A stretch of DNA of 34,720 nt, from IMG/VR virus record IMGVR_UViG_2529293223_000013; one strand, 5' to 3'. Below, piece after piece: positions 1,958 to 28,118 of the stretch. Source of the stretch: a virus (taxonomy: Duplodnaviria; Heunggongvirae; Uroviricota; Caudoviricetes). Each line of letters begins with the position of its first letter. Positions within the stretch are counted from its first letter, which is position 1. The position numbers were made by a program, and so were the translations under genes. A model generated the notes under the pieces. That model did not search any database and was not told where the DNA came from. It saw only the letters and a list, made by a program, of their open reading frames with translations.

Positions 1958-4405
1958 TTAACCGTCATGCATCATGCTGGCACGGGCGCGCGCACGTTTA
2001 TCCCGCTCGTATTTTTCGAGCGCATCCTGTAACTGGCGGTCAAGCTGTGTCTCCGGCGCAGTACCGCCCGTCAGGCTGATGTGATATTCGTTTTTACTCT
2101 GGTCCACATAAGAGCGGCCAGCCGGTGCCGTGACCGGCTGATAAGCCTGATAGCCTGCATAAGAGCTGGTCGCCGGAATATAACCACCGGTGCCATACGT
2201 GGCGGCATTAGTCCTTGCGGCGGTCTGGTCAAGTGTGTCTGACTCTTTGTTGATAACACCGAGTTTTTCCAGTACCCAGTCAATACCACTGCGCAGTTTG
2301 TTGAACGCATTAAGCGGCAGCATCAACGCGTCAGCCAGTGCCTGCCCGAACATGACGCCCGTGTCACGGCAACGGTTCAGGGTGTCCTGTGTGGCTTTAA
2401 CCGGGGCAATCAGGTTTTTAAACCACTGCCACGCGGCCTGTAACTTTTCTCCCAGCCAGTCAAACACCGGCTTAAGTGGCGTGAACAGTTCCCCCACCGG
2501 CGCAAATGCCGCTTTCAGCCCTTCCACCACACCGCCAAAGAATGCGCTGACAGGCTCCCAGTATTTACGGATAAGCAACGCCCCGGCGACAATGGCGGCC
2601 ACCACAGCCACAACCGGCCAGCTAATCGCCCCGATGGCCGTCATAACGGCACTGCCAACCGTCGTGAAGATTGCCCCCATTGCGCCTGCTGCCGCGATGA
2701 TGGCATTGATGCCGGTGATAACCGGCCAGACTACAAGGCCAATGGCACCGATGATGCCAGTAAGCGCCAGCGCGCCACCGGCAATGATGCCGATGGTTGA
2801 CGCCAGTGATTTGTTTTTCTGGATCCAGCCGTCGAGTTTTAACACATACTTTGTGGCTGTCTGCGTGAGCTTACGCAGCGCGCCTTCCTGCTGGTCAAAC
2901 AGGTCAGTCCCCACCGCCTCATAAGCGGACTGAAACTCCTTAAAGTCACCGCCGAGGTTATCCTGCATGATTTTAACCAGCTCTTCCGTTTTACCGTCCG
3001 AGGCTTTCAGCGTGGCGGTCAGCTTATCCAGTTTTCCGCTTGCTGCCGCTGCCAGTAAAACGTTCGCTGATTTCAGGGCTTCCTCACCAAAAATGGTTTT
3101 AAGGTATTCCCCCTTCTGAGACGTTCCCAGCTTGTGTTTATCAAAGCTGGCCTGAATCTCTTTCAGAATGGTGAATAACGGACGCATATTTCCCTTTTTG
3201 TCCGAGGTTTTCACGCCAAGCTCTTTGAGTGCATCCCATGCTTTTCCAGTCGGTGCCTGTAATCGGGTGACAACGGCACTGCTACCCGTCCCCGCCATTG
3301 ACCCCCTGATGTTATTGTCATGCAGCACACCTGTCATGGCTGCTGCCTGCTCAAGACTTACACCTGCCGTCCTCGCAACCGGCCCGAGGTAAGTCAGTGC
3401 ATCACTGAGTCCCTGAAAATCAGCCGCCGACTTATTCATCGTTGCCGACAACACGTCGCCCACATGGCTGACATCATCATTTGACAGTTGAAAGGATGCC
3501 TTAGTCCCCAGCAACAGTTGCGCGTTTTCTTCCATCGACCGCTGATTCGCCAGTGCCATATTCAGCGTGACCGGCGTTGCCGCCTGAATAGCCGCAGCAT
3601 CTCCACCCGCTTTCGCAATGATAATCTGTGCACCGGCTGCATCATCTGCCGAGGCTGCGGTATTGTCGCCGAGCTGGCGCGCCTGCTTACGGAGTGCGGT
3701 CATTTCGGCGGAGTCTTTTGCCACACCGAGCACAGCCTGTAATTCTGAGTTTTTCTGCGCAAACTCATAACCGGGCATCAGCAGCTTAACTCCGGCCATC
3801 GTTCCCGCAGCTGCAATCCCCACACCGGCAGCGCCCACTGAGGCCATATTTCCGGCCAGTTCCTTTCCTGCCTGATAACGCTGTTTGACTGCGTTAAGTT
3901 TTACCTGTTGTGCACTGACACGCGCCAGCGCGTCACGCTGACGGTTAAGCTGTGCGGTGGTTTCACTGATACGGTTTTTCAGTCCCTGCTCATCATGTGC
4001 AAGATTGCGGGTATTAATTCCCACAACGGCCAGTTCCCGCTGCTGGCGTTTAACAGAATCCGTCAGGCGGTTATATTTCGCCTGTAAGTCCTCCGCCGCA
4101 CGCTTTGCGGATTCCAGCACTTTCGCCTGAGCACGGGTCGGACGTTCGGTGTTTTTAAACTGTGTGGCAAGGGCTTCGGCTTCCTGCCGAGCCTTTTCAA
4201 GTGCATGACCAGTCACGGCGAGCTGTGCACTGGTCTTGCGAAATCCCTCAATACGGGATGCCTGACCGTTCAGCTCGCGCAGTGATTTTTGTGTTTCCCG
4301 GATATCCCCCGACAGCGATTTGCTCGCTGTGCGGATGGATTTAAACGGGCGGGATGCCTGGTCAACAGCCCTGAGCAATACCTGTAATTTTACATTGTTA
4401 CTCAT
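1958..4405 (-). CDS. T: Tail tape measure protein (P2 gpT)
   Basis: 815-aa ORF, the P2 gpT length. Coiled-coil-rich N-terminal part (QLAV..., ELAVVG...) and Gly/Ala-rich hydrophobic middle are typical of tape measure proteins. Sits between E/E' and U. Confidence 0.9.
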   Translation of the reverse strand: MSNNVKLQVLLRAVDQASRPFKSIRTASKSLSGDIRETQKSLRELNGQASRIEGFRKTSAQLAVTGHALEKARQEAEALATQFKNTERPTRAQAKVLESAKRAAEDLQAKYNRLTDSVKRQQRELAVVGINTRNLAHDEQGLKNRISETTAQLNRQRDALARVSAQQVKLNAVKQRYQAGKELAGNMASVGAAGVGIAAAGTMAGVKLLMPGYEFAQKNSELQAVLGVAKDSAEMTALRKQARQLGDNTAASADDAAGAQIIIAKAGGDAAAIQAATPVTLNMALANQRSMEENAQLLLGTKASFQLSNDDVSHVGDVLSATMNKSAADFQGLSDALTYLGPVARTAGVSLEQAAAMTGVLHDNNIRGSMAGTGSSAVVTRLQAPTGKAWDALKELGVKTSDKKGNMRPLFTILKEIQASFDKHKLGTSQKGEYLKTIFGEEALKSANVLLAAAASGKLDKLTATLKASDGKTEELVKIMQDNLGGDFKEFQSAYEAVGTDLFDQQEGALRKLTQTATKYVLKLDGWIQKNKSLASTIGIIAGGALALTGIIGAIGLVVWPVITGINAIIAAAGAMGAIFTTVGSAVMTAIGAISWPVVAVVAAIVAGALLIRKYWEPVSAFFGGVVEGLKAAFAPVGELFTPLKPVFDWLGEKLQAAWQWFKNLIAPVKATQDTLNRCRDTGVMFGQALADALMLPLNAFNKLRSGIDWVLEKLGVINKESDTLDQTAARTNAATYGTGGYIPATSSYAGYQAYQPVTAPAGRSYVDQSKNEYHISLTGGTAPETQLDRQLQDALEKYERDKRARARASMMHDG

Positions 4406-5412: not shown

Positions 5413-6603
5413 TTAATTGCTGTTAACCGAAGTGACCAGATTTGCCAGGTATTTATCGGTGATACGCTGGCGCAGGGTCAGGTTTTCGAGAGGAGGCACC
5501 GGGGTATAGTCGTAGTCGATATACAGTTTTCCGGCCTTGAGGGTTTCCGCATCGTTGGATTCTTCGCTGAACCAGCAGGTCGCATCCACGATATAGCCGT
5601 TTGTTTTCAGCTCACGGAATTTGGCATTGATGCCGTCAACGATGTCGCGAATCAGCGTTGCGGTGATGGGCTTGTCCACCGCCCACATGTGCGCCTCAGC
5701 CATCGTATCGGCCAGCACCTGCGCGGTGCGGGTGTAGTTTTCAAAGAGGAAAAGCGGGTCATCAGAGCAGGTACGGTTACCCCAGAATCGGAAACCGTCA
5801 CGGCGAATCAGCGTAGTGACGCCTGACTCGTTAAGCAGGTCAGCATCGGTGCCGGACTCCTGCAAATCCCAGAATACGGACGCGCTGATGCCGGTAACAC
5901 CGTTCACCCCGACGTTGGACAGCGTTTTATGCCAGCCCTGCTCCTGGTCGATTTTAGCGCGCAGACCCAGCGCACGGGCGGTGGCATACGCGGTGGCGGT
6001 GGTACTGGCGACCGTATCCCATGCGAGGAAATCCGGCCAGATGACCATCAGCTCACGCTGGCTGAAATTCTGGCGGTAGGCTTTCACCTCGGAAACGGTC
6101 TTACAGCCCCATGCGCTGATATACCCGAAAGCGCGCAGCTTCTGACAGACTGATGCCAGTGCAACAGCCACCTCTTTGGTGTCCAGTCCCGGCACGCCGA
6201 GAATACGCGGTTTAACACCGGTTACCGACTCCGCCGCCAGCAGGGCTTTCAGTCCGGTGTACTGACCGTTTTCGTCGGTGGTGCCGATGATATTGGAAAC
6301 GGTCTGCGCGAGTTTCGTTTCCTCGTCGTCGCCGGTGCCGTCTTCCACACGCACGACAACGGTGACCGGTTTTGACTGGTCGGCGATGGCCTGCAACGAT
6401 GCCGCCAGCGTGCCTTTTTTACCGGCCTTTGCAATTGCGCTCTGCACATTGGTAATCAGCACCGGTTTATTGAGGGGGAAGGTTTCCGCATCCGCATCGC
6501 TGGCCGTGCAGACCATGCCGACAATGGCAGTGGATACGGTGGAAATGACGCGGGTGCCGTCGTTAATCTCCAGCACCTGCACGCCGTGATGATAGTCACT
6601 CAT
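5413..6603 (-). CDS. FI: Tail sheath protein (P2 gpFI)
   Basis: 396-aa ORF, P2 gpFI size, first gene of the FI-FII-E-T-U-D operon. Confidence 0.9.
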   Translation of the reverse strand: MSDYHHGVQVLEINDGTRVISTVSTAIVGMVCTASDADAETFPLNKPVLITNVQSAIAKAGKKGTLAASLQAIADQSKPVTVVVRVEDGTGDDEETKLAQTVSNIIGTTDENGQYTGLKALLAAESVTGVKPRILGVPGLDTKEVAVALASVCQKLRAFGYISAWGCKTVSEVKAYRQNFSQRELMVIWPDFLAWDTVASTTATAYATARALGLRAKIDQEQGWHKTLSNVGVNGVTGISASVFWDLQESGTDADLLNESGVTTLIRRDGFRFWGNRTCSDDPLFLFENYTRTAQVLADTMAEAHMWAVDKPITATLIRDIVDGINAKFRELKTNGYIVDATCWFSEESNDAETLKAGKLYIDYDYTPVPPLENLTLRQRITDKYLANLVTSVNSN

Positions 6604-6968
6604 CCGTTTAACTCCGTGGTTAATGGGTGCAACTATTTTCTGTTGGGCAGTGCATGAGACGCTATTTGACCTGGCTGGTCAGTGGATGAAACAACAGATA
6701 AAGAAAATGCGGGCAATTCGCCCGCATGTCCTGATTTGTACACACTCATTTTCCGACTGACAGTTTACATAGCCCAAACGCTATCAAATCTGACAGCCTG
6801 CTATGAGCGAAAAGCGTTAAATCTCACGATATCTGCTACCGGGAAAAATTTCGATTATCTTCGATGGGAACTTTGATAATGTAGTAAATGCCATTTTCAG
6901 CGATCACTTTTCAAGCGTGTGTAAATGATTAATGTTAAAAAATTGACTTCACTGAAATAAGGTTGCTA

Positions 6969-8121
6969 AATAGCTGCGCGGAATAGTAGATCACTTTGAG
7001 GGAACTTAGCCCGGATTGTGCGATCTGATCAATCGCCAAATCAAAACAAATCACCAACCGGACTGAGCAATGCCGATCATAGCACCAATTTCCCGTGACG
7101 AACGACGCCTGATGCAGAAAGCCATCCATAAAACACACGATAAAAATTATGCCCGCAGACTGACTGCCATGCTGATGCTGCACCGGGGCGACCGTGTCAG
7201 CGACGTTGCCAGAACGCTCTGCTGCGCCCGTTCCTCTGTTGGACGCTGGATTAACTGGTTCACGCAGTCGGGTGTTGAGGGACTGAAATCATTACCTGCC
7301 GGGCGTGCCCGTCGCTGGCCGTTTGAGCATATCTGCACACTGTTACGTGAGCTGGTAAAACATTCTCCCGGCGACTTTGGCTACCAGCGTTCACGCTGGA
7401 GTACAGAACTGCTGGCAATAAAAATCAATGAGATAACCGGTTGCCAGTTAAATGCCGGAACCGTTCGCCGCTGGTTGCCGTCTGCGGGGATTGTGTGGCG
7501 AAGGGCTGCGCCAACTCTGCGTATCCGTGACCCGCATAAAGATGAAAAGATGGCAGCAATCCATAAAGCACTGGACGAATGCAGCGCAGAGCATCCGGTC
7601 TTTTATGAAGATGAAGTGGATATCCATCTTCATCCCAAAATCGGTGCGGACTGGCAACTGCGCGGACAGCAAAAACGGGTGGTCACGCCGGGACAGAATG
7701 AAAAATATTATCTGGCCGGAGCGCTGCACAGCGGGACAGGTAAAGTCAGCTATGTGGGCGGCAACAGCAAAAGTTCGGCGCTGTTCATCAGCCTGCTGAA
7801 GCGGCTTAAAGCGACATACCGTCGGGCGAAAACCATCACGCTGATCGTGGACAACTACATTATCCACAAAAGCCGGGAAACACAGAGCTGGCTGAAGGAG
7901 AACCCGAAGTTCAGGGTCATTTATCAGCCGGTTTACTCGCCATGGGTGAATCATGTTGAACGGCTATGGCAGGCACTTCACGACACAATAACGCGTAATC
8001 ATCAGTGCCGCTCAATGTGGCAACTGTTGAAAAAAGTTCGCCATTTTATGGAAACCGTCAGCCCATTCCCCGGAGGCAAACATGGACTGGCAAAAGTGTA
8101 GCGGTATTAAGCGCAGCTATT
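6969..8121 (+). mobile_element. IS630-type insertion sequence (Tc1/mariner-like, IS630 family)
   Basis: Terminal inverted repeats AATAGCTGCGC (6969..6979) and GCGCAGCTATT (8111..8121), continuing as imperfect repeats of about 28 bp. Flanked by a TA dinucleotide on each side (6967..6968 and 8122..8123); removing the element restores CTAG. Length is exactly 1153 bp, which I recall as the IS630 length. Contains one 343-aa transposase ORF. Confidence 0.85.
7070..8101 (+). CDS. IS630-family transposase (DDE)
   Basis: 343-aa ORF inside the inverted repeats with an N-terminal HTH-like region, matching the IS630 transposase as I recall it from Shigella sonnei. Stop codon lies within the right inverted repeat. 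Confidence 0.85.
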   Translation: MPIIAPISRDERRLMQKAIHKTHDKNYARRLTAMLMLHRGDRVSDVARTLCCARSSVGRWINWFTQSGVEGLKSLPAGRARRWPFEHICTLLRELVKHSPGDFGYQRSRWSTELLAIKINEITGCQLNAGTVRRWLPSAGIVWRRAAPTLRIRDPHKDEKMAAIHKALDECSAEHPVFYEDEVDIHLHPKIGADWQLRGQQKRVVTPGQNEKYYLAGALHSGTGKVSYVGGNSKSSALFISLLKRLKATYRRAKTITLIVDNYIIHKSRETQSWLKENPKFRVIYQPVYSPWVNHVERLWQALHDTITRNHQCRSMWQLLKKVRHFMETVSPFPGGKHGLAKV

Positions 8122-8168
8122 TAGTATTTTTGGAGCAACCATTAATGTTTTTTATTTAAGGAATGTAA

Positions 8169-9587
8169 ATGACATACGCACTGATTGATAATTCAACTCT
8201 AACTGCAGTCCAAAGAATCGAGGGGAAAGTAAAAACAAGATCGAAGGACTCAGTAGATACAGACATAATAGCATTTGAGAACTATATACAGTCTATTTTG
8301 TTCTATGATCACGTTATCGCGGTTGATGATTATATTCCAGAGTACCGTGGGAGTAGGATTTCAAGTTTCAGAGAGATATTATTTCTTGATAAAGCACAAT
8401 ATGGGTTGGATGAAATTGAAAGTGAAGCAAAAAAAATATCTGATGCATTGAAACCTAAAATTCGTGGTGGAACATTTGTTAATGACGATTTTAAAAAACT
8501 AATTGAACTTCTTCAGACACATATCATATGTACATGGGACATTAGTTCAAGTGTTTATCATCTAACACTGAAGAACTTATCTGATGGAGGTAAGGAGTTT
8601 GAAAAATATGGTAACATTGCTGCTGCCATTTTTTCAGAACTGCGTGATGCTGCTGAGTCTGGTAATAGAACAAATGGCGATGTTGAACTTCTCGATCGAT
8701 TTGGCAACCCTATTCGCAAGGGGTACAAAGTTCCCGGAGCAAAATGGGGGGATGGCACATCTGCTGGTGAAGCATCAGATGCAATCAAAGCATTCGTGGC
8801 TTCGCTTGTATGGCTGGCTAATCGGGCAGTATTTTATTCTCTCACAGCTAAGTACCTTCAAGCAGATACTTTTTTATATCCATTACGTCAGGCGTATCAA
8901 CAGACATATTTAAGCCAAAACTGTCAGTATGGTTTTGACTATGCTAAACATATTGTAGAAAACTTTTCCACTTCGTTAAGTCATGATCTCATTGATATTC
9001 ATTCTGGTGGTAAAGCTGTAGCAACAGCAACTTCGCTTCCTTTATTTTCGGCATGGCTCGCAAAAGAAACTGGTGATCCAAGTTGTATTGTTGAAGCTGC
9101 TTATAACATAAGGGACAACAACGAATTTGTAAGGGCCCGTGAGAAAATGCGAGAAATAAAGCGCTTGTTTGATGAAAATGAATTGCCTCAAGCTAATAAG
9201 TCAGTAAGAGCATTGCTTACTGAAGTATCGAAAGAATCAGATTATATTCGAACTAAGTATGGGCTCAAGACTAGACAAGGTGTACCTGTAACTAAGCTTG
9301 TACATGTATACAATACTGTTGCGGCTATTAATTCCCTTCCGAAACTACCGACCTTTAATTTTAAAGTTAAAGTTCCTGATTTCTTATATGATCTTAAAAA
9401 ACCCAAGGGGTTTCGTGCTCTCTATCGAAATTTGACTAATGATCTTTCTACTGTGTGGTCGTTAGGAGAAGCTCGAGATATTCTTGGAAGTAAAGTTGTG
9501 ATAGATAATCATGCAAGAATTTACAGTCCGAAGCATGAAGAACCGCGTTTCAAAAACTCTCATTCCCCATATAAGAGCCCGATGTAG
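8169..9587 (+). CDS. Uncharacterised 472-aa cargo protein in the FI-G (Z/fun-equivalent) hotspot; function unknown
   Basis: Uninterrupted 472-codon ORF with a Shine-Dalgarno-like AAGGA 7-8 nt upstream of the ATG. Hand counts on two 60-nt stretches give roughly 30-38% G+C against about 53% in a sampled structural-gene stretch. Opposite strand to the flanking late genes. I do not recognise the sequence or any canonical motif. Confidence 0.6.
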   Translation: MTYALIDNSTLTAVQRIEGKVKTRSKDSVDTDIIAFENYIQSILFYDHVIAVDDYIPEYRGSRISSFREILFLDKAQYGLDEIESEAKKISDALKPKIRGGTFVNDDFKKLIELLQTHIICTWDISSSVYHLTLKNLSDGGKEFEKYGNIAAAIFSELRDAAESGNRTNGDVELLDRFGNPIRKGYKVPGAKWGDGTSAGEASDAIKAFVASLVWLANRAVFYSLTAKYLQADTFLYPLRQAYQQTYLSQNCQYGFDYAKHIVENFSTSLSHDLIDIHSGGKAVATATSLPLFSAWLAKETGDPSCIVEAAYNIRDNNEFVRAREKMREIKRLFDENELPQANKSVRALLTEVSKESDYIRTKYGLKTRQGVPVTKLVHVYNTVAAINSLPKLPTFNFKVKVPDFLYDLKKPKGFRALYRNLTNDLSTVWSLGEARDILGSKVVIDNHARIYSPKHEEPRFKNSHSPYKSPM

Positions 9588-9701
9588 CTTAAGAAAAAGA
9601 CACGCCCACCTTGTGCGTCTACTTCTGGCACAGAGCGGACTCTCAGATTAGGCTTTACTCTGTGCCATAGATATGTAAGCTCACACCAGAGCTCATACAA
9701 C

Positions 9702-10229
9702 TTATTGCGGCATTTCCGGCCATTCAGGATTTGCAGGATCCACACGACTGACCAGAACACTGTAGCGTTCCCATGCCTCCAGTCGACTGCGCTCCTCATC
9801 TGTTGCCATATTCAGCCTGACAGCGCGCTCCAGCGGCAAAATCACGGATTCAGCATCTGCAAGAAGTCTGGCTTTCCGATTTTCTGCCTGCTGCTGCAAT
9901 TCCTCTGCCGTATAAATTCGTTTAATCACTGTACAGTCCTTAAACATCCAGTTCCCTGAAATGTCCGCCCGTCGGTTAGCAGTAATATCCGGCACTTCAA
10001 CAACACTTAATCCATCCGGTCTGATAGCTGTCACATCCTTTTCCACATAGCGGATAATATTATCTTTGTCGTACGCTATTTTTATCGTGTCATCAGCAAA
10101 ATACTTTTGTTCTTCGTACCAGTTCTTACCATCTTCTGAAAAAAACCAGACAACATCAAAGTCCTTTGTCAATTGATATTGTTCAACCGTTTTTGGATTA
10201 CCTGCCGTTATATTTATCAAATGCTGCAT
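9702..10229 (-). CDS. G: Tail fibre assembly chaperone (P2 gpG)
   Basis: 175-aa ORF, P2 gpG size, immediately downstream of the tail fibre gene. Confidence 0.85.
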
Positions 10230-10232
10230 AAA

Positions 10233-11173
10233 TTATACCTGCGCCACGTTATACCAAGTCCCGTTAATGTATTTCTGCACCGGTCTGTAATATACGCCAC
10301 CAATGTTATCGGCAGAGTTTGAGCCGGTATCCTGAACAATAATGCCGGAATATACACACCCGGACGGTGCCTGATGTGTCCATGTCATACCATTGTTCGC
10401 AGGTTTGTATGTGGCAGCACCACCAAGCCGGATATCCCGGACATAGCGTGAATCAAAGTTGCCATAGTTAGATGGTGATACCTGCCCGTTAACAGCAAAA
10501 GTGATGCTGTTATCTGTATTTCTCTGACTGTAAAAATGCCAGCCTGCATCATCACCTAATTCAGCCACCACAGGACGACTTGAGTTTCCCCACAAATTGA
10601 ATGCGGCTTCCTTCGTGGATGTATTGCTGCTGCTGACCGTGAACTTTTTCCCGCTACCGGCACGTACTTTGGTACTTGAGACAATATCACCTGTAACACT
10701 CAGGCCATGCCCCATTGACACTCCGCCATTGGCGTTATTGATAGTCAGCGGTCTTAAGCCGTTCCATGTCCCAAATTTATCGCCAGAGGCCGTCAGCATT
10801 AAATATGTGCTGCCGCCATCATTCCTGATAAAGAATCCATAATTGCCATAAGCAATGCGCAGACCATTAGCACTGAGTGATGTAATTTCACCTCTTGAAC
10901 GGAGACCATAAGCGGAGCTGAGTGATAATTCTTCCTGAGCGTCATTGTTTCCTGTCGCCCAGCGAATTACCCCGCCCTGAACTGTTTCATGCCAGATAGT
11001 ATCTCCTTCTCCACCACGAAACTTTCTGAGATATTTTTTGCCGCCTCTGGTGCCTGAACATAAGGCCGTAGACATATAGGCATTCTGGCTTCCGCCATCC
11101 TGATTAATCGTTCCGGTCATTGAGTCGCCCTGACGATTCCAGTCACGACGCCAGCCGGGGGAGTAGCCGTCCC
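10233..11173 (-). pseudogene. H: Tail fibre protein H, C-terminal portion (gene interrupted by an IS element)
   Basis: Open frame continues from the IS boundary down to the stop at 10233 (ORF track 10233..11120). Gly/Ser/Asn-rich receptor-binding-like sequence. In frame with the N-terminal fragment once the 1304 bp of IS plus duplication is removed. Confidence 0.8.
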
Positions 11174-12467
11174 CTGAGGGATCCCCAGAAAATTTAGTAA
11201 ACCATTATCATATTGGTATACCGTTGCTGTAGAACTTTCAGCCCTGCGTCAAGTGACAGTGTGTTTAGTATGAGTGGAGAATGTCGAATCACATTCTCCG
11301 CCAGTTTTAATAACGAGATGACTCGCCTGTGCTTCACTGTATTTGCCTGATATTTATGATGTATCCCTTTGTTTTCCAGGCTGAAACCGCTTAACCACAT
11401 AATGATACTGGCTAATGTTGCGATCAGACTCAATACCGTGACCCGCCCGGATGAATGACTGGCACCAAACCGTAGTCCAAATCCCCAGCGAGGATTTTTT
11501 TCATCCCTGAAATTTTGCTCAATTTGCATTCTACGGCTGTATAATTTCATTACCTGTTTTGGCGAGAACTCAGTACTGTTTGTGAAAATAAACCATGGTG
11601 ATTTCCCGGCAGTACGAGCTTTAGCCGTCACCGATGGTCTGGTTGCTCTTTCCTTCGAGCGTTTAAATCTACGACCTTTAGGCTTACTTTTATAAAGATA
11701 AAAATGCCCTTCATGTTGTGCATTTTTATCTCGACCCAGCAGGCCTTCACCTAAATAAATTGCTGTCGTTGATGCTTTTGTGCCTGAGTCCGACACCTTT
11801 TCCCAGCCATTACCAACATTGTAATAATGATTGCCCAGTACCCGGCAAATATAGGTCCAGCCACGGGAGCGGAGCTGTTGGAACCATCGCCCCTGAAAAC
11901 CGGCATCTGTAATAACAATGACATCAGTCCCGGGGGAAAAGCACTCAGCAAGCGATTCCAGAAAACGCTCATGTACATCTGCATTCGCTGTCTGTGATGA
12001 TGGAACGACACAACTCATCAACGGTAAAGAACGCCCGTCACATGCCAGGCTTGCCCGCAAAAGCTGAAAACGAGAGGCATGATAAGCACTCCAGTCAATG
12101 AGTATCACAACACGAGACATTCCCCGCGTAATCTTTTGGGTAATTCGCTGAAAAATGGTGGAAACCTCATTTTGCAAATGTCGATTCCCCAACAGTCGAT
12201 CCACCCGCTTTATTTTGTTTTTAACTGATGCCGTACCGGTTAAATGACGCCCGATACTGGTAAGTGTGAGGGAAGCGCCATTTATTACAGCATTAGTTGC
12301 GTCAATCAGTGATTTTTGACGGTAAAGATGCAAAGGGGCCAGTATGTTGTTAAGGAAATTTTGGCATAATGAACGTGCAGGCATAGTGGTGATCTCCTTG
12401 AAATTGTTAGCACAATCAATTAGATCACATCTCACTATGCCTGTCTTGTTTTCTGGGGATTCCTCAG
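11174..12467 (-). mobile_element. IS4-family (IS10-like) insertion sequence inside tail fibre gene H
   Basis: Terminal inverted repeats CTGAGGGATCCCCAGAAAA (11174..) and TTTTCTGGGGATTCCTCAG (..12467) with one mismatch. Flanked by direct repeats of the target (tagccgtccc at 11164..11173 and 12468..12477, i.e. a 9-10 bp duplication). Encodes a transposase with IS10-like motifs. Element ends are uncertain by 1 bp. Confidence 0.85.
11194..12384 (-). CDS. IS4-family DDE transposase (IS10-like)
   Basis: ORF 11194..12480 (-) with IKRVDRLLGNRHL and YSRRMQIEQNFRDEKNPRWGFGLRF motifs, close to IS10 transposase IKRIDRLLGNRHL and YSKRMQIEETFRDLK. The track ORF starts outside the IS end, so the true start is internal; I place it at the first in-element Met (12382..12384), giving about 396 aa. 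Start codon is uncertain. Confidence 0.75.
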   Translation of the reverse strand: MPARSLCQNFLNNILAPLHLYRQKSLIDATNAVINGASLTLTSIGRHLTGTASVKNKIKRVDRLLGNRHLQNEVSTIFQRITQKITRGMSRVVILIDWSAYHASRFQLLRASLACDGRSLPLMSCVVPSSQTANADVHERFLESLAECFSPGTDVIVITDAGFQGRWFQQLRSRGWTYICRVLGNHYYNVGNGWEKVSDSGTKASTTAIYLGEGLLGRDKNAQHEGHFYLYKSKPKGRRFKRSKERATRPSVTAKARTAGKSPWFIFTNSTEFSPKQVMKLYSRRMQIEQNFRDEKNPRWGFGLRFGASHSSGRVTVLSLIATLASIIMWLSGFSLENKGIHHKYQANTVKHRRVISLLKLAENVIRHSPLILNTLSLDAGLKVLQQRYTNMIMVY

Positions 12468-13855
12468 TAGCCGTCCCCATGATTTATGTAAGTGAATTGC
12501 GCGCTGGTTGTACCGCCACCGCTTGATGTTGTTGGCGTGGTCACTCGGATAGTGATTGCAGATTTAGTTCCCATGACCTCGACGACACAACCAGCCAGGT
12601 GGATATCACCACATCCGGTATCCGTAATGATTTTGTTATTTGCATATGACCAGGAGCCTTTGCACATCCAGTACGGATGATTAAATGCACCACGGGAATC
12701 CAGCCATTCAATAAACTGAGCGGTTGTCCAGTTTCCGGCTTCAGTGCTCAAAGCGCCGCTATAAGCACGACAGGCACCGATATTTTTCGTGAAGGTATCC
12801 TTTCCCGGAATATCCGCACCGTTCTGATCTTTCTGAAGACGTTTTTCAGCATTGTCATAGGCAGACTTCACTGCTTTTGGCGTTGCGGCCAGCGTTTCAG
12901 AATCGCTGTTGATGGCACTACTTAGCTGGACAAGACCTTTTCGCGCTGTGGTGGCATCCTGTGCAGTGTATTTCCCGTTAGCAAGGTCATACGCTGTCTT
13001 AACCGCCTTTGGTGTTGCCGCAAGCGTTTCAGAATCGCTGTTGGTGGCGCTACTGAGCTGGACAAGACCTTTTCGCGCTGTAGTGGCGTCCTGTGCAGTG
13101 TATTTCCCGTTAGCAAGGTCATACGCTGTCTTAACCGCCTTTGGCGTTGCCGCAAGCGTTTCAGACGTGCTGTTGGTGGCACTACTGAGCTGGACAAGAC
13201 CTTTTCGCGCTGTGGTAGCGTCCTGTGCGGTATATTTCCCGTTAGCAAGGTCATAGGCGGCCTTTACCGCTTTCGGCGTTGCGGCCAGTGTTTCAGACGT
13301 GCTGTTGGTCGCACTGCTTAACTGAGTAAAACCTTTTGCGGTCAGCGAGGCGTCCGGGTGACGTCGTGACTGTTCGTGCTCTGCAATTTTGTCATCAACG
13401 TAATCCTGTGTCGCCATCACCGTTGTGGTGTCAATGGTCAGCTCCACCGAGGCCACACTGCTGACGATGATGACCATGCGACAGGTCTGCGAACGCCCTG
13501 AGCCTTCGGCAAGAGCTGGCTTATAACTTTCGGCCATGTTCGCCACGGCAATTAACGTTCCCGCATCATCGTACAGGCCAAGCTCACGCATCCAGAAACC
13601 GCCCACCTCCGGCGGAATAACCAGCTCTGCGATAATATAATTACTGTTTCGTTTGTCCTGGCTGATTTTGTTCAGCGTATGTCGCCAGACTTCGTGGATA
13701 AGCCCGGTCTGTCCGGCATCCGGGACAGGCAATTTACCACCGCCATCCCCGACGGCCATCGTGGTAATGTTGACCTTCCGCCCTCCCGGTGCGGTTGCCG
13801 CTGCCAGCTTTGCTGCACCGGCAGTGGTGATAACGGTTCTGAATTTTGTGCTCAT
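12468..13855 (-). pseudogene. H: Tail fibre protein H, N-terminal portion (gene interrupted by an IS element)
   Basis: N-terminus MSTKFRTVITTAGAAKLAAATAPGGRKVNITTMAVGDGGGKLPVP... is the conserved P2-type H N-terminal domain, followed by four copies of a 44-aa repeat. The track ORF reads on into the IS until a chance stop at 12464. Confidence 0.85.
12860..13340. repeat. About 3.6 tandem copies of a 132-bp coding repeat within tail fibre gene H
   Basis: The CGTTTCAG landmark recurs at 12900, 13032, 13164 and 13296 (period 132 bp) with near-identical units. Encodes repeated KGLVQLSSATNSTSETLAATPKAVKTAYDLANGKYTAQDATTAR. Generates mirror ORFs on both strands in the ORF track. Confidence 0.9.
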
Positions 13856-25912: not shown

Positions 25913-28118
25913 ATGAAATTAAAACTCAAAAACGTAACAAGCTATCATAAAGAATATTTTACTGAGTTAGATTTATCCAAAAAAATAAACATATTGTATG
26001 GACAAAATGGTTGTGGAAAATCTACCATATCAAATTATTTTTACAATCCTAAAGACACCGCCTATAAGGAATGTGTATGCGAACCCATCGATAATTATCG
26101 AACCCTAGTCTACAACTCAAAATATATAGAAGATAATTTTTATAATGCAAAAGAGCAAAAAGGTATATTTACCCTCAGTCAAAAAAATGCAGAAATTGAA
26201 AAAATACTATCTGAAAAAGAAGAGCTAAACAAATCACTAGCACATCAGCATAAAGAAAAAAAGAATTTATCGAAAAACTCCATGAAGCGAAAAACAAAAA
26301 AGAGCAAGAATGCATAAATTCCATATGGAATAAGACCAAAGACATAAGAAGTTCAGAATTAAAACAATTAATGAAAGGTCAAATAGGAAGCAAAGCCACT
26401 TTCTATTACCATCTAAAAAAGTATACTCCACAAACTGATATTGATATAAAATCATTAATACAATCTTATAGCAAACTTCTCGAGTTTAAAGGAAAAGAAA
26501 TACCTCTGATAACTCCTTATAAAGGATATGTTTTATCTGAAGAAACTCAAAAAACATTATCCACACCAATTATTGACTCTAGCAACAGCTATTTATCTGA
26601 AGCAATAAAAGAGCTACAAAATATTGATTGGATTAAACAAGGCAAAGAGCTATATTTAAATGGAGAAATTTGTCCATTTTGCCAAAGGGACACAATAGAT
26701 GATAATTTTATTAAAGCCATTGAATCTATCTTTGATGAAACATACTCAAGAAAAGTAGATCAAATACAACAAATAAAACTATCTTATGATAATGCCATTA
26801 AAAATCATCATGAAGAAATAAAGAGTAACATTTTATCATGTGAGGTGATAAACCAAGACGAAAAAGATAAAAGTCTTTCATATGTTAAGGCATTAGAAAC
26901 TATTGCAGAAAAAACATTAAACTATTGGATAATAAAATAGAGAATCCATCTATAAGCATTGTGCTGGAGTTTGAAAAGTCGATAGAGGAAAAACTATTAG
27001 AAGATATAGAACAATACAACAATAAAATTAACGAGTTCAATGACAAAGTAAAAAGATTTAATAATAGCGAAATAGATATTCGCGAAAAGATGTGGGCAGC
27101 AATCAGAGACTTATGTGGCGCGGAATTTGAAATACTATCAGACTGCGAAAGAAACTTTCAAGAAAAATATGAAAACGCTGCATCCTTCATGCAGGAAATA
27201 AAAAGAAAAGAAGAGATCAACACAAATGAAATCAATGAACTAAGAAATAAAACATCAAGTGTAGATGCAACAATAGATGCAATAAACTCACGACTTAAAT
27301 TTCTTGGCATCTCTGGTTTTAGCATTGATAAACACGCCGAACTCAAAGATAAGTATATAATATCCCGCGATGGAAACAATAGAAAACAAGATGTATATCG
27401 CTCATTAAGCGAAGGTGAAAAAACATTAATAACGTTTCTATATTTTTTAGAATGTTGCAAGGGTAAAACAAATGAAAATGATACTGATATGCGTGATAAA
27501 CTCATAGTCATAGATGATCCTATATCAAGTTTATCTCAAAACTATGTTTTCGACATAGCATCCATGATCCATCATGACATAATTGAAAAAGGCATTTCAT
27601 CAAAAATAATAATCCTCACCCATAATCTTTATTTCTTCCATGAGTTAATAAAACTCGCCTCTAAAAAAGGAATAAATTTTAAACGTGACTACTTTCTTGG
27701 CAGAATAAACAAAAATGAATTTAGCACCATTAGTGCTATAGATAAAAAAAGTGTGCAAAATGAATACCAATCCCTTTGGCAAGTATTAAAAGATGCAAAA
27801 GAGAAAAAAATCAACAAAATAATAATCCCCAATATTATGAGAAATATACTTGAGTATTACTTTGCATTTGTTCATAGAACTGACGCATTAGAGGCAAAGC
27901 TTACTGAATTAACAAATGATGAAAATAACAGCCATTTCCGTGCCTTTTACAGATATATAAACAGAGGCTCTCACTCCGACGCAATAAACATAACAGATAT
28001 GGGCGATATTGAACCTGAGAAATACTTAGAACTCTTGCACAAAATATTCAGAATGACTGGTGATGAGAAACATTACTTAACAATGATGGGTGAAGAAGAG
28101 GTAAATGTTACCGCTTAG
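25913..28118 (+). pseudogene. PrrC/RloC-like ABC-type ATPase with CxxC motif and C-terminal putative anticodon-nuclease domain; reading frame broken by two frameshifts
   Basis: Three consecutive ORFs (25913..26317, 26371..26940, 26925..28118) in frames 2, 1 and 0 form one gene of about 735 codons. It carries Walker A (GQNGCGKST), a coiled-coil region with CPFC, an ABC-signature-like LSEGEKTL, Walker B (LIVIDDPISS), an H-loop-like ILTHN, and a C-terminal R-x3-E...H arrangement (RNILE...H). A hand count on one 60-nt stretch gives about 22% G+C. RBS AGAGGG precedes the ATG. Frame changes fall in overlaps that contain A7 (26256..26262) and A6 (26909..26914) tracts. Confidence 0.6.

Follow-up and report, generated by a model that had tools for sequence, protein, structure and literature searches.

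IS630 at a CTAG site separates a fun(Z) cargo gene from its native upstream module in a P2-like prophage

The stretch of DNA examined here, hereafter the window, comprises 34,720 nucleotides (nt) of viral DNA (Caudoviricetes; IMG/VR record IMGVR_UViG_2529293223_000013) and carries a P2-like prophage in which a copy of the insertion sequence (IS) IS630 stands just upstream of an intact cargo gene. Through the insertion, 1.15 kb of DNA has come to lie between the cargo gene and the whole of its native upstream module. The two hexamers of the module's best sigma-70-like pair are parted and the TG extended -10 prefix is lost; neither the ribosome-binding site nor the coding sequence is damaged. 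The account that we consider likely as a whole is as follows. A canonical IS630 transposed into the TA of a CTAG target that lies 47 bp before the single-gene cargo of the prophage's fun(Z) hotspot, and transcription of that gene from its native promoter would thereby be reduced. Residual expression would be supplied by RNA that is initiated within IS630, or runs into it from outside, and continues through its transposase gene. The insertion itself would most likely be a neutral consequence of IS activity in a prophage that is decaying, directed to this locus by the scarcity of CTAG, and is probably not a selected regulatory switch.

The IS630 element and its empty site

The IS630 copy is 1153 bp long and occupies 6969..8121 on the + strand, with boundaries defined by its inverted repeats and by the ungapped match of an IS-free reconstruction in seven E. 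coli genomes, described below. The left terminal inverted repeat (AATAGCTGCGC, 6969..6979) and the right one (GCGCAGCTATT, 8111..8121) pair perfectly over 11 of 11 bp. Imperfect pairing extends further inward, with 15 of 17 positions matching and about 21 of 29 deeper in the element; with the adjoining TA counted in, 18 of 20 match. The two copies of the TA target-site duplication lie at 6967..6968 and 8122..8123; the original CTAG began with the C at 6966 and ended with the G at 8124. The insertion is in the TA of a CTAG target, with a 2-bp TA duplication. A preliminary description of this DNA had given the element as 1153 bp at these positions, with 11-bp perfect repeats and TA on both sides, and every one of its coordinates holds.

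Within the element, an intact 343-amino-acid (aa) transposase gene (7070..8101, + strand) was identified with Pfam and NCBIfam. The protein matches the Pfam family DDE_3 (2.6e-24) and, in its N-terminal part, four helix-turn-helix (HTH) families (HTH_23, HTH_32, HTH_29 and HTH_28). Against the NCBIfam profile transpos_IS630 it scores 258.5 bits (cut-off 100), with the match covering profile positions 1-298 of 299. Over its full length, the DNA is 99.3-99.7% identical to RefSeq copies annotated 'IS630-like element IS630 family transposase'. The domains and the DNA identity bear out the earlier description of the element as IS630 at a CTAG upstream of the cargo gene, and 47 nt lie between the end of the IS and the cargo start codon (ATG at 8169). 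The element is a plain, canonical IS630 of an already-known kind, apparently intact as judged from its sequence. It agrees with the IS630 of Shigella sonnei, in the IS630/Tc1/mariner superfamily, in its length of 1153 bp, its 343-aa DDE transposase with an N-terminal HTH, its terminal repeats and its CTAG target. No structural feature distinguishes the two, and only the insertion site is particular to the present genome. The preference of IS630 for CTAG is credited to Tenzen and Ohtsubo (1991), as cited by PMC6811581.

The empty site was reconstructed by deleting the IS and one copy of the TA, such that 6400..6968 is joined to 8124..9700, and 5,426 complete E. coli genomes were searched. The reconstruction was found as a single ungapped piece in seven of these genomes at 99.3-100% identity, with two of the matches perfect; the occupied site was found in none of the 5,426. 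Ten loci were retrieved with the exact cargo protein as query; nine of them contain the exact 90-nt IS-free junction. Counted over all fetched loci, this junction occurs in 10, and the empty site there reads GGTTGCTAGTATT across the insertion point. Empty-site strains include E. coli 89-3156. The existence of the empty site in nature is far beyond chance, and the alignment to IS-free relatives that had been proposed as a check on the insertion has the predicted outcome. The two alleles are identified by the junction k-mers GGTTGCTAAATAGCTGCGC (occupied) and GGTTGCTAGTATTTTTGG (empty).

The occupied allele makes up one of the ten loci shown and 1 of about 22 long-contig loci. The occupied locus, L011 (PSSR01000001.1 in assembly GCA_002968245.1), has both IS junctions, is identical to the window from 4169 onward, and is the source of the window or its twin. 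Minus the IS, the window from 6074 to 11177 differs by one mismatch and one gap from a locus in HE616528.1, which is IS-free and which we take to be Shigella sonnei 53G. The 90% cluster of the cargo protein has members named E. coli, Shigella sonnei and Shigella boydii. Because the empty junction is present in relatives and no complete E. coli genome is occupied, the insertion is evidently recent and its allele rare, whereas the locus as such is common in Escherichia/Shigella. A literature search for papers naming assembly GCA_002968245.1 or the cargo protein accession found none. Cargo entries labeled 'partial' in S. sonnei assemblies were considered as additional IS insertions at the CTAG at 9271. 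Their lengths vary continuously with contig extent, so that they look like ordinary contig ends.

Promoter candidates and transcription in the occupied state

In the empty locus, the -35-like hexamer TTGACT (6943..6948, + strand), an 18-nt spacer (6949..6966) and the -10-like hexamer TAGTAT (8122..8127, + strand) form a pair with nine of 12 consensus matches, a TG extended -10 and a spacing within 16-18 nt. Insertion of IS630 moves the -35-like hexamer 1.15 kb from its -10 partner and leaves the TGc extended -10 prefix (6964..6966) on the other side of the IS. This geometry, and the separation of the two hexamers by the IS, are as the preliminary description had them. In a consensus scan of the empty locus (2.2 kb), TTGACT-18-TAGTAT is the only + strand sigma-70-like site. 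The same scan at the same threshold returns no + strand sigma-70-like site in the occupied window from 6500 to 9800. The left junction offers TTGACT-18-TAAATA, without the final T.

Upstream regions of homologues were aligned, and the alignment delimits a non-coding module of about 215 nt that accompanies the cargo gene (6800..6968 plus its last 45 nt at 8124..8168, + strand). Seven distinct upstream regions are included, that of E. coli and six others (L012, L027, L052, L053, L058 and L059). The sources beyond E. coli are Lonsdalea, two Pantoea, Serratia and metagenomic homologues, with protein identities of 80-90%. The -35-like hexamer is TTGAyT in five of the seven regions. A second promoter-like site, TCGATT-18-GATAAT (6851..6880, + strand; 8/12 with an 18-nt spacer), lies farther upstream; it remains intact when the site is occupied and points into the IS. 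On the other side of the insertion, a Shine-Dalgarno-like AAGGA (8158..8162, + strand), 6 nt before the ATG, is untouched, and its aGG core is found in every aligned homologue. This Shine-Dalgarno sequence is the only element recognized in the 45 nt left between the IS side and the ATG. The firm conclusion is that IS630 stands between the cargo gene and each of its candidate native promoters. The sequence is compatible both with a promoter split by the IS and with an IS lying in the promoter's leader, and promoter disruption is plausible.

The blocks AATGAAATAAG and TGATAAT are also conserved in the module, which travels with the cargo gene among P2 prophage, conjugative elements and plasmids. 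A conserved hairpin or operator cut by the IS was considered as well. Across the -10 position of the E. coli empty site lies the inverted repeat GGTTGCT(11 nt)AGCAACC, with arms of 7 bp, which appeared to be preserved in two relatives by compensatory changes. The hairpin was ruled out: RNAalifold on the seven sequences fails to recover it (consensus -0.3 kcal/mol), and the folding of the E. coli leader is no better than that of shuffles (z = -1.1). A search of the whole window with Rfam at gathering thresholds detected no known RNA.

Several considerations weigh against the preferred account. The TTGACT-TAGTAT pair is a candidate promoter read from sequence, and its hexamer match occurs at chance frequency: promoter-like sites in the empty locus number 4, compared with 5.6 +/- 2.7 in shuffles, which is no excess over chance. 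The essential A at position 2 of the -10 is kept in only two of the seven homologous regions, E. coli (TAGTAT) and L058 (TAGATT); the remaining five read TGGTTT, TGATTT, TGAAAT, TGACGT and one deleted variant. The GATAAT of the site at 6851..6880 is kept in five of the seven, which is better than TAGTAT; taken as a whole, the two candidate sites are about equally well conserved. If 6851..6880 is the real promoter, the IS lies in the 5' leader, and read-through could keep expression near normal. Finally, the intact cargo open reading frame (ORF) is equally compatible with a recent neutral event and with continued use of the gene. The proposal that the IS splits a sigma-70 promoter accordingly stands in part. 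The pair is the only + strand site, it has a TG prefix, and it is lost on occupation; its match rate and the poor conservation of the -10 A do not favor it.

The best-placed alternative holds that the insertion is neutral for expression, with a promoter upstream of the IS, such as that at 6851..6880, or transcription of the transposase gene being sufficient, and with the cargo made from a long transcript through IS630. The intact upstream site and its better-kept GATAAT favor this view, as do the undamaged Shine-Dalgarno sequence and ORF. The transposase and cargo genes are on the same (+) strand, and the scanned region from 6500 to 9800 has no + strand terminator-like site and hence none between the two genes. 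Because the genes share an orientation and no terminator is recognizable, read-through from the transposase gene is plausible, as the preliminary description had suggested. A precedent exists in ISFtu1, an IS630-family element that is co-transcribed with downstream genes (review PMC9330008). However, the upstream site matches at only 8/12 with an 18-nt spacer, a translated leader lengthened by 1.15 kb usually lowers downstream expression, and the left end of the IS upstream of the transposase ORF (6969..7069) contains no promoter site of at least 8/12. We regard an expression-neutral insertion as possible but on balance unlikely, and we favor reduced transcription from the native promoter. The arrangement resembles the promoter-disrupting or promoter-replacing IS insertions reviewed in PMC9330008 in that the IS stands between a gene and its upstream region and is oriented with the gene, and in the co-transcription known for ISFtu1. 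It differs in that no outward or hybrid promoter is recognizable here and the predicted net effect is a loss, not a gain, of expression.

CTAG scarcity and probable decay of the prophage

The IS630-free window of 33.6 kb contains eight CTAG sites versus 131 expected from base composition, an approximately 16-fold under-representation. Five of the eight fall in two AT-rich (low-GC) cargo regions that together make up 13% of the sequence. The sites are at 9271, 26105, 26237, 26579, 28303, 28530 and 34068, in addition to the occupied one at 6966/8124. Because CTAG is scarce outside cargo DNA, IS630 would be steered toward cargo without any selection, and its depletion in the prophage backbone makes IS630 copies near cargo genes explicable on the same terms. 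Where IS630 and a 'defence' gene occur together, a neutral process can explain it, and regulation should not be deduced from the association. The same reasoning predicts that IS630 insertions in P2-like prophages cluster in accessory and defence loci for purely mechanistic reasons.

A second IS is present in the same prophage. ISEc60, an IS4-like element, occupies 11175..12466, with its transposase gene at about 11194..12384 on the - strand, and is flanked by a 12-bp target duplication, GTAGCCGTCCCC, at 11163..11174 and 12467..12478. Copies in E. coli FDAARGOS_943/944 and CFSAN029787 match it at 100% identity. ISEc60 breaks the P2-type tail-fibre gene H, which is intact and 772 aa long in relatives, into pieces of 463 and 295 aa. 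The formation of infectious particles by the prophage is improbable.

A parallel is known from S. sonnei, in which IS630 inserted at a CTAG in fliC during reductive evolution (PMC6811581). The element, the CTAG target and an IS-rich lineage that is losing functions are common to both cases. In fliC, however, the coding sequence was interrupted and a later deletion was mediated, whereas here the upstream region is struck and the ORF is intact. The scarcity of CTAG, the ISEc60 insertion in the tail-fibre gene, the fliC precedent and the rarity of the occupied allele are the reasons for which we read the present insertion as neutral. The suggestion that it represents IS-mediated modulation of the cargo gene is unsupported, since the scarcity of targets, together with the second IS that this prophage carries, speaks for a neutral event of the decay type.

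The Escherichia/Shigella lineage is known for IS expansion, and CTAG is the textbook target of IS630. The event is an ordinary one in an IS-rich Escherichia/Shigella genome and not a new kind of regulation; events of this sort are already known. Two considerations temper this assessment. We infer the host, an IS-rich Escherichia/Shigella genome represented by assembly GCA_002968245.1, from the names of the cluster members. In addition, a purely dismissive view would overlook that an IS-bearing prophage is atypical among P2-like elements, though not for an IS-rich host. It is atypical because, according to a 2026 survey (PMC13586616), P2 hotspots seldom contain pseudogenised defence genes; the survey also notes that transposable elements are considered rare in the genomes of phages.

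The cargo gene and selective readings of the insertion

The cargo gene (8169..9587, + strand) is an intact ORF of 472 aa assigned to phrog_13435. Annotation of identical loci places it between the P2-type tail sheath gene FI (5413..6603, - strand), which forms the left border of the hotspot, and the tail-fibre assembly gene G (9702..10229, - strand), which forms the right border. A gene between G and FI of the P2-type tail cluster, on the strand opposite to the tail genes, is in the position of the fun(Z) hotspot. The locus occupied by fun(Z) in P2 has been described as a second hotspot at which P2-like phages are enriched in defence genes (Vassallo et al. 2022, PMC9519451). The present locus agrees with the published hotspot in its location between the tail-fibre assembly and tail-sheath genes and in the opposite strand of its cargo. 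It differs in that phrog_13435 is outside the known defence families and has no PADLOC match.

The cargo protein has no match in Pfam, PADLOC v2 or NCBIfam, and PHROG 13435 is annotated as being of unknown function. A sequence search of the PDB yielded nothing meaningful (best E = 0.44). Four acidic residues of the protein, D32, E37, D47 and D53, are invariant. Homologues with 51-100% identity, nearly all of about 472 aa, occur across Proteobacteria, and more distant ones are found in Nitrospira, Cyanobium, Verrucomicrobia and Clostridia. Their neighbors include BstA_C, TIR, OLD-like TOPRIM ATPase and HEPN proteins as well as conjugation genes. By analogy, the neighborhood of the homologues resembles the company kept by defence genes. 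The earlier proposal of a possible defence gene retains its hotspot context; the database searches above lend it no family. As an uncharacterized and widespread gene, the cargo is a more interesting object at this locus than the IS630 insertion.

Homologues in at least ten distant taxa, among them Zobellella, Halomonas, Nitrospira and Cyanobium (L013-L017, L019, L020 and L022-L025), look like integron gene cassettes. In these, GTTAGAGC lies 15-35 nt before the start codon, and its complement, GCTCTAAC, follows directly after the stop codon. Beyond GCTCTAAC comes a long imperfect palindrome that ends in GTTA... and is attC-like. Defence systems are reportedly frequent in cassettes of integrons (bioRxiv 10.1101/2024.07.02.601686).

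Taken at its most ambitious, a selective reading would make the 472-aa cargo an undescribed single-gene anti-phage or toxic effector with a weakly PIN-like N-terminus, moving among P2 hotspots, conjugative elements and integron arrays, with IS630 as a selected off-switch that detaches the gene from its promoter and spares the ORF. We consider this very unlikely; if it were true, the empty and occupied alleles would constitute a natural on/off pair. Selection for dampening the toxicity of an anti-phage effector is, as an explanation of the insertion, highly improbable. The gene is within a known P2 defence hotspot (PMC9519451), its homologues are found beside BstA_C, TIR, OLD-like TOPRIM and HEPN genes and on conjugative elements, and the promoter was struck while the ORF was left intact, all of which would fit adaptive silencing. 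However, the toxicity or defence activity of the cargo is putative, the allele is rare (in none of the seven complete E. coli carriers and in only the one long-contig locus), and CTAG scarcity accounts for the choice of site. Moreover, the destruction of the tail-fibre gene by ISEc60 points to general decay, and the reported rarity of pseudogenised defence genes in P2 hotspots implies that swapping, rather than inactivation, is the usual route (PMC13586616).

Activation of the cargo by an outward or hybrid IS630 promoter, a mechanism known for many insertion sequences (review PMC9330008), can practically be dismissed: although the -10-like TAGTAT still adjoins the right end of the IS, that end supplies no -35-like hexamer at 16-18 nt (AGCGGT, TAGCGG and GTAGCG, which match at 0-2 of 6 positions), ATT has taken the place of the TG prefix, and scanning for the consensus gives no + strand site when the IS is present. 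The empty and occupied alleles form a natural pair for asking about cargo expression from the proposed promoter and about cargo function.

Elsewhere in the window, the gpQ-gpA (old/tin) hotspot (25913..28118, + strand) contains a candidate defence ATPase of the PDC-S06 type with a PrrC-like C-terminal part. The gene is split into three ORFs that cover profile positions 4-135, 156-338 and 341-724. Relative to the intact 735-aa gene of E. coli STW0522-31, it is one A short in each of two poly-A runs (26255 and 26908) and carries one substitution. The deletions may be either real frameshifts or long-read homopolymer errors. In the comparison with the HE616528.1 locus (L006), 126 of about 190 differences fall within 3000..3600, in the tape-measure gene, and none lies between 6074 and the IS. 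This clustering indicates a mosaic or recombinant tail module beside a near-identical cargo locus.
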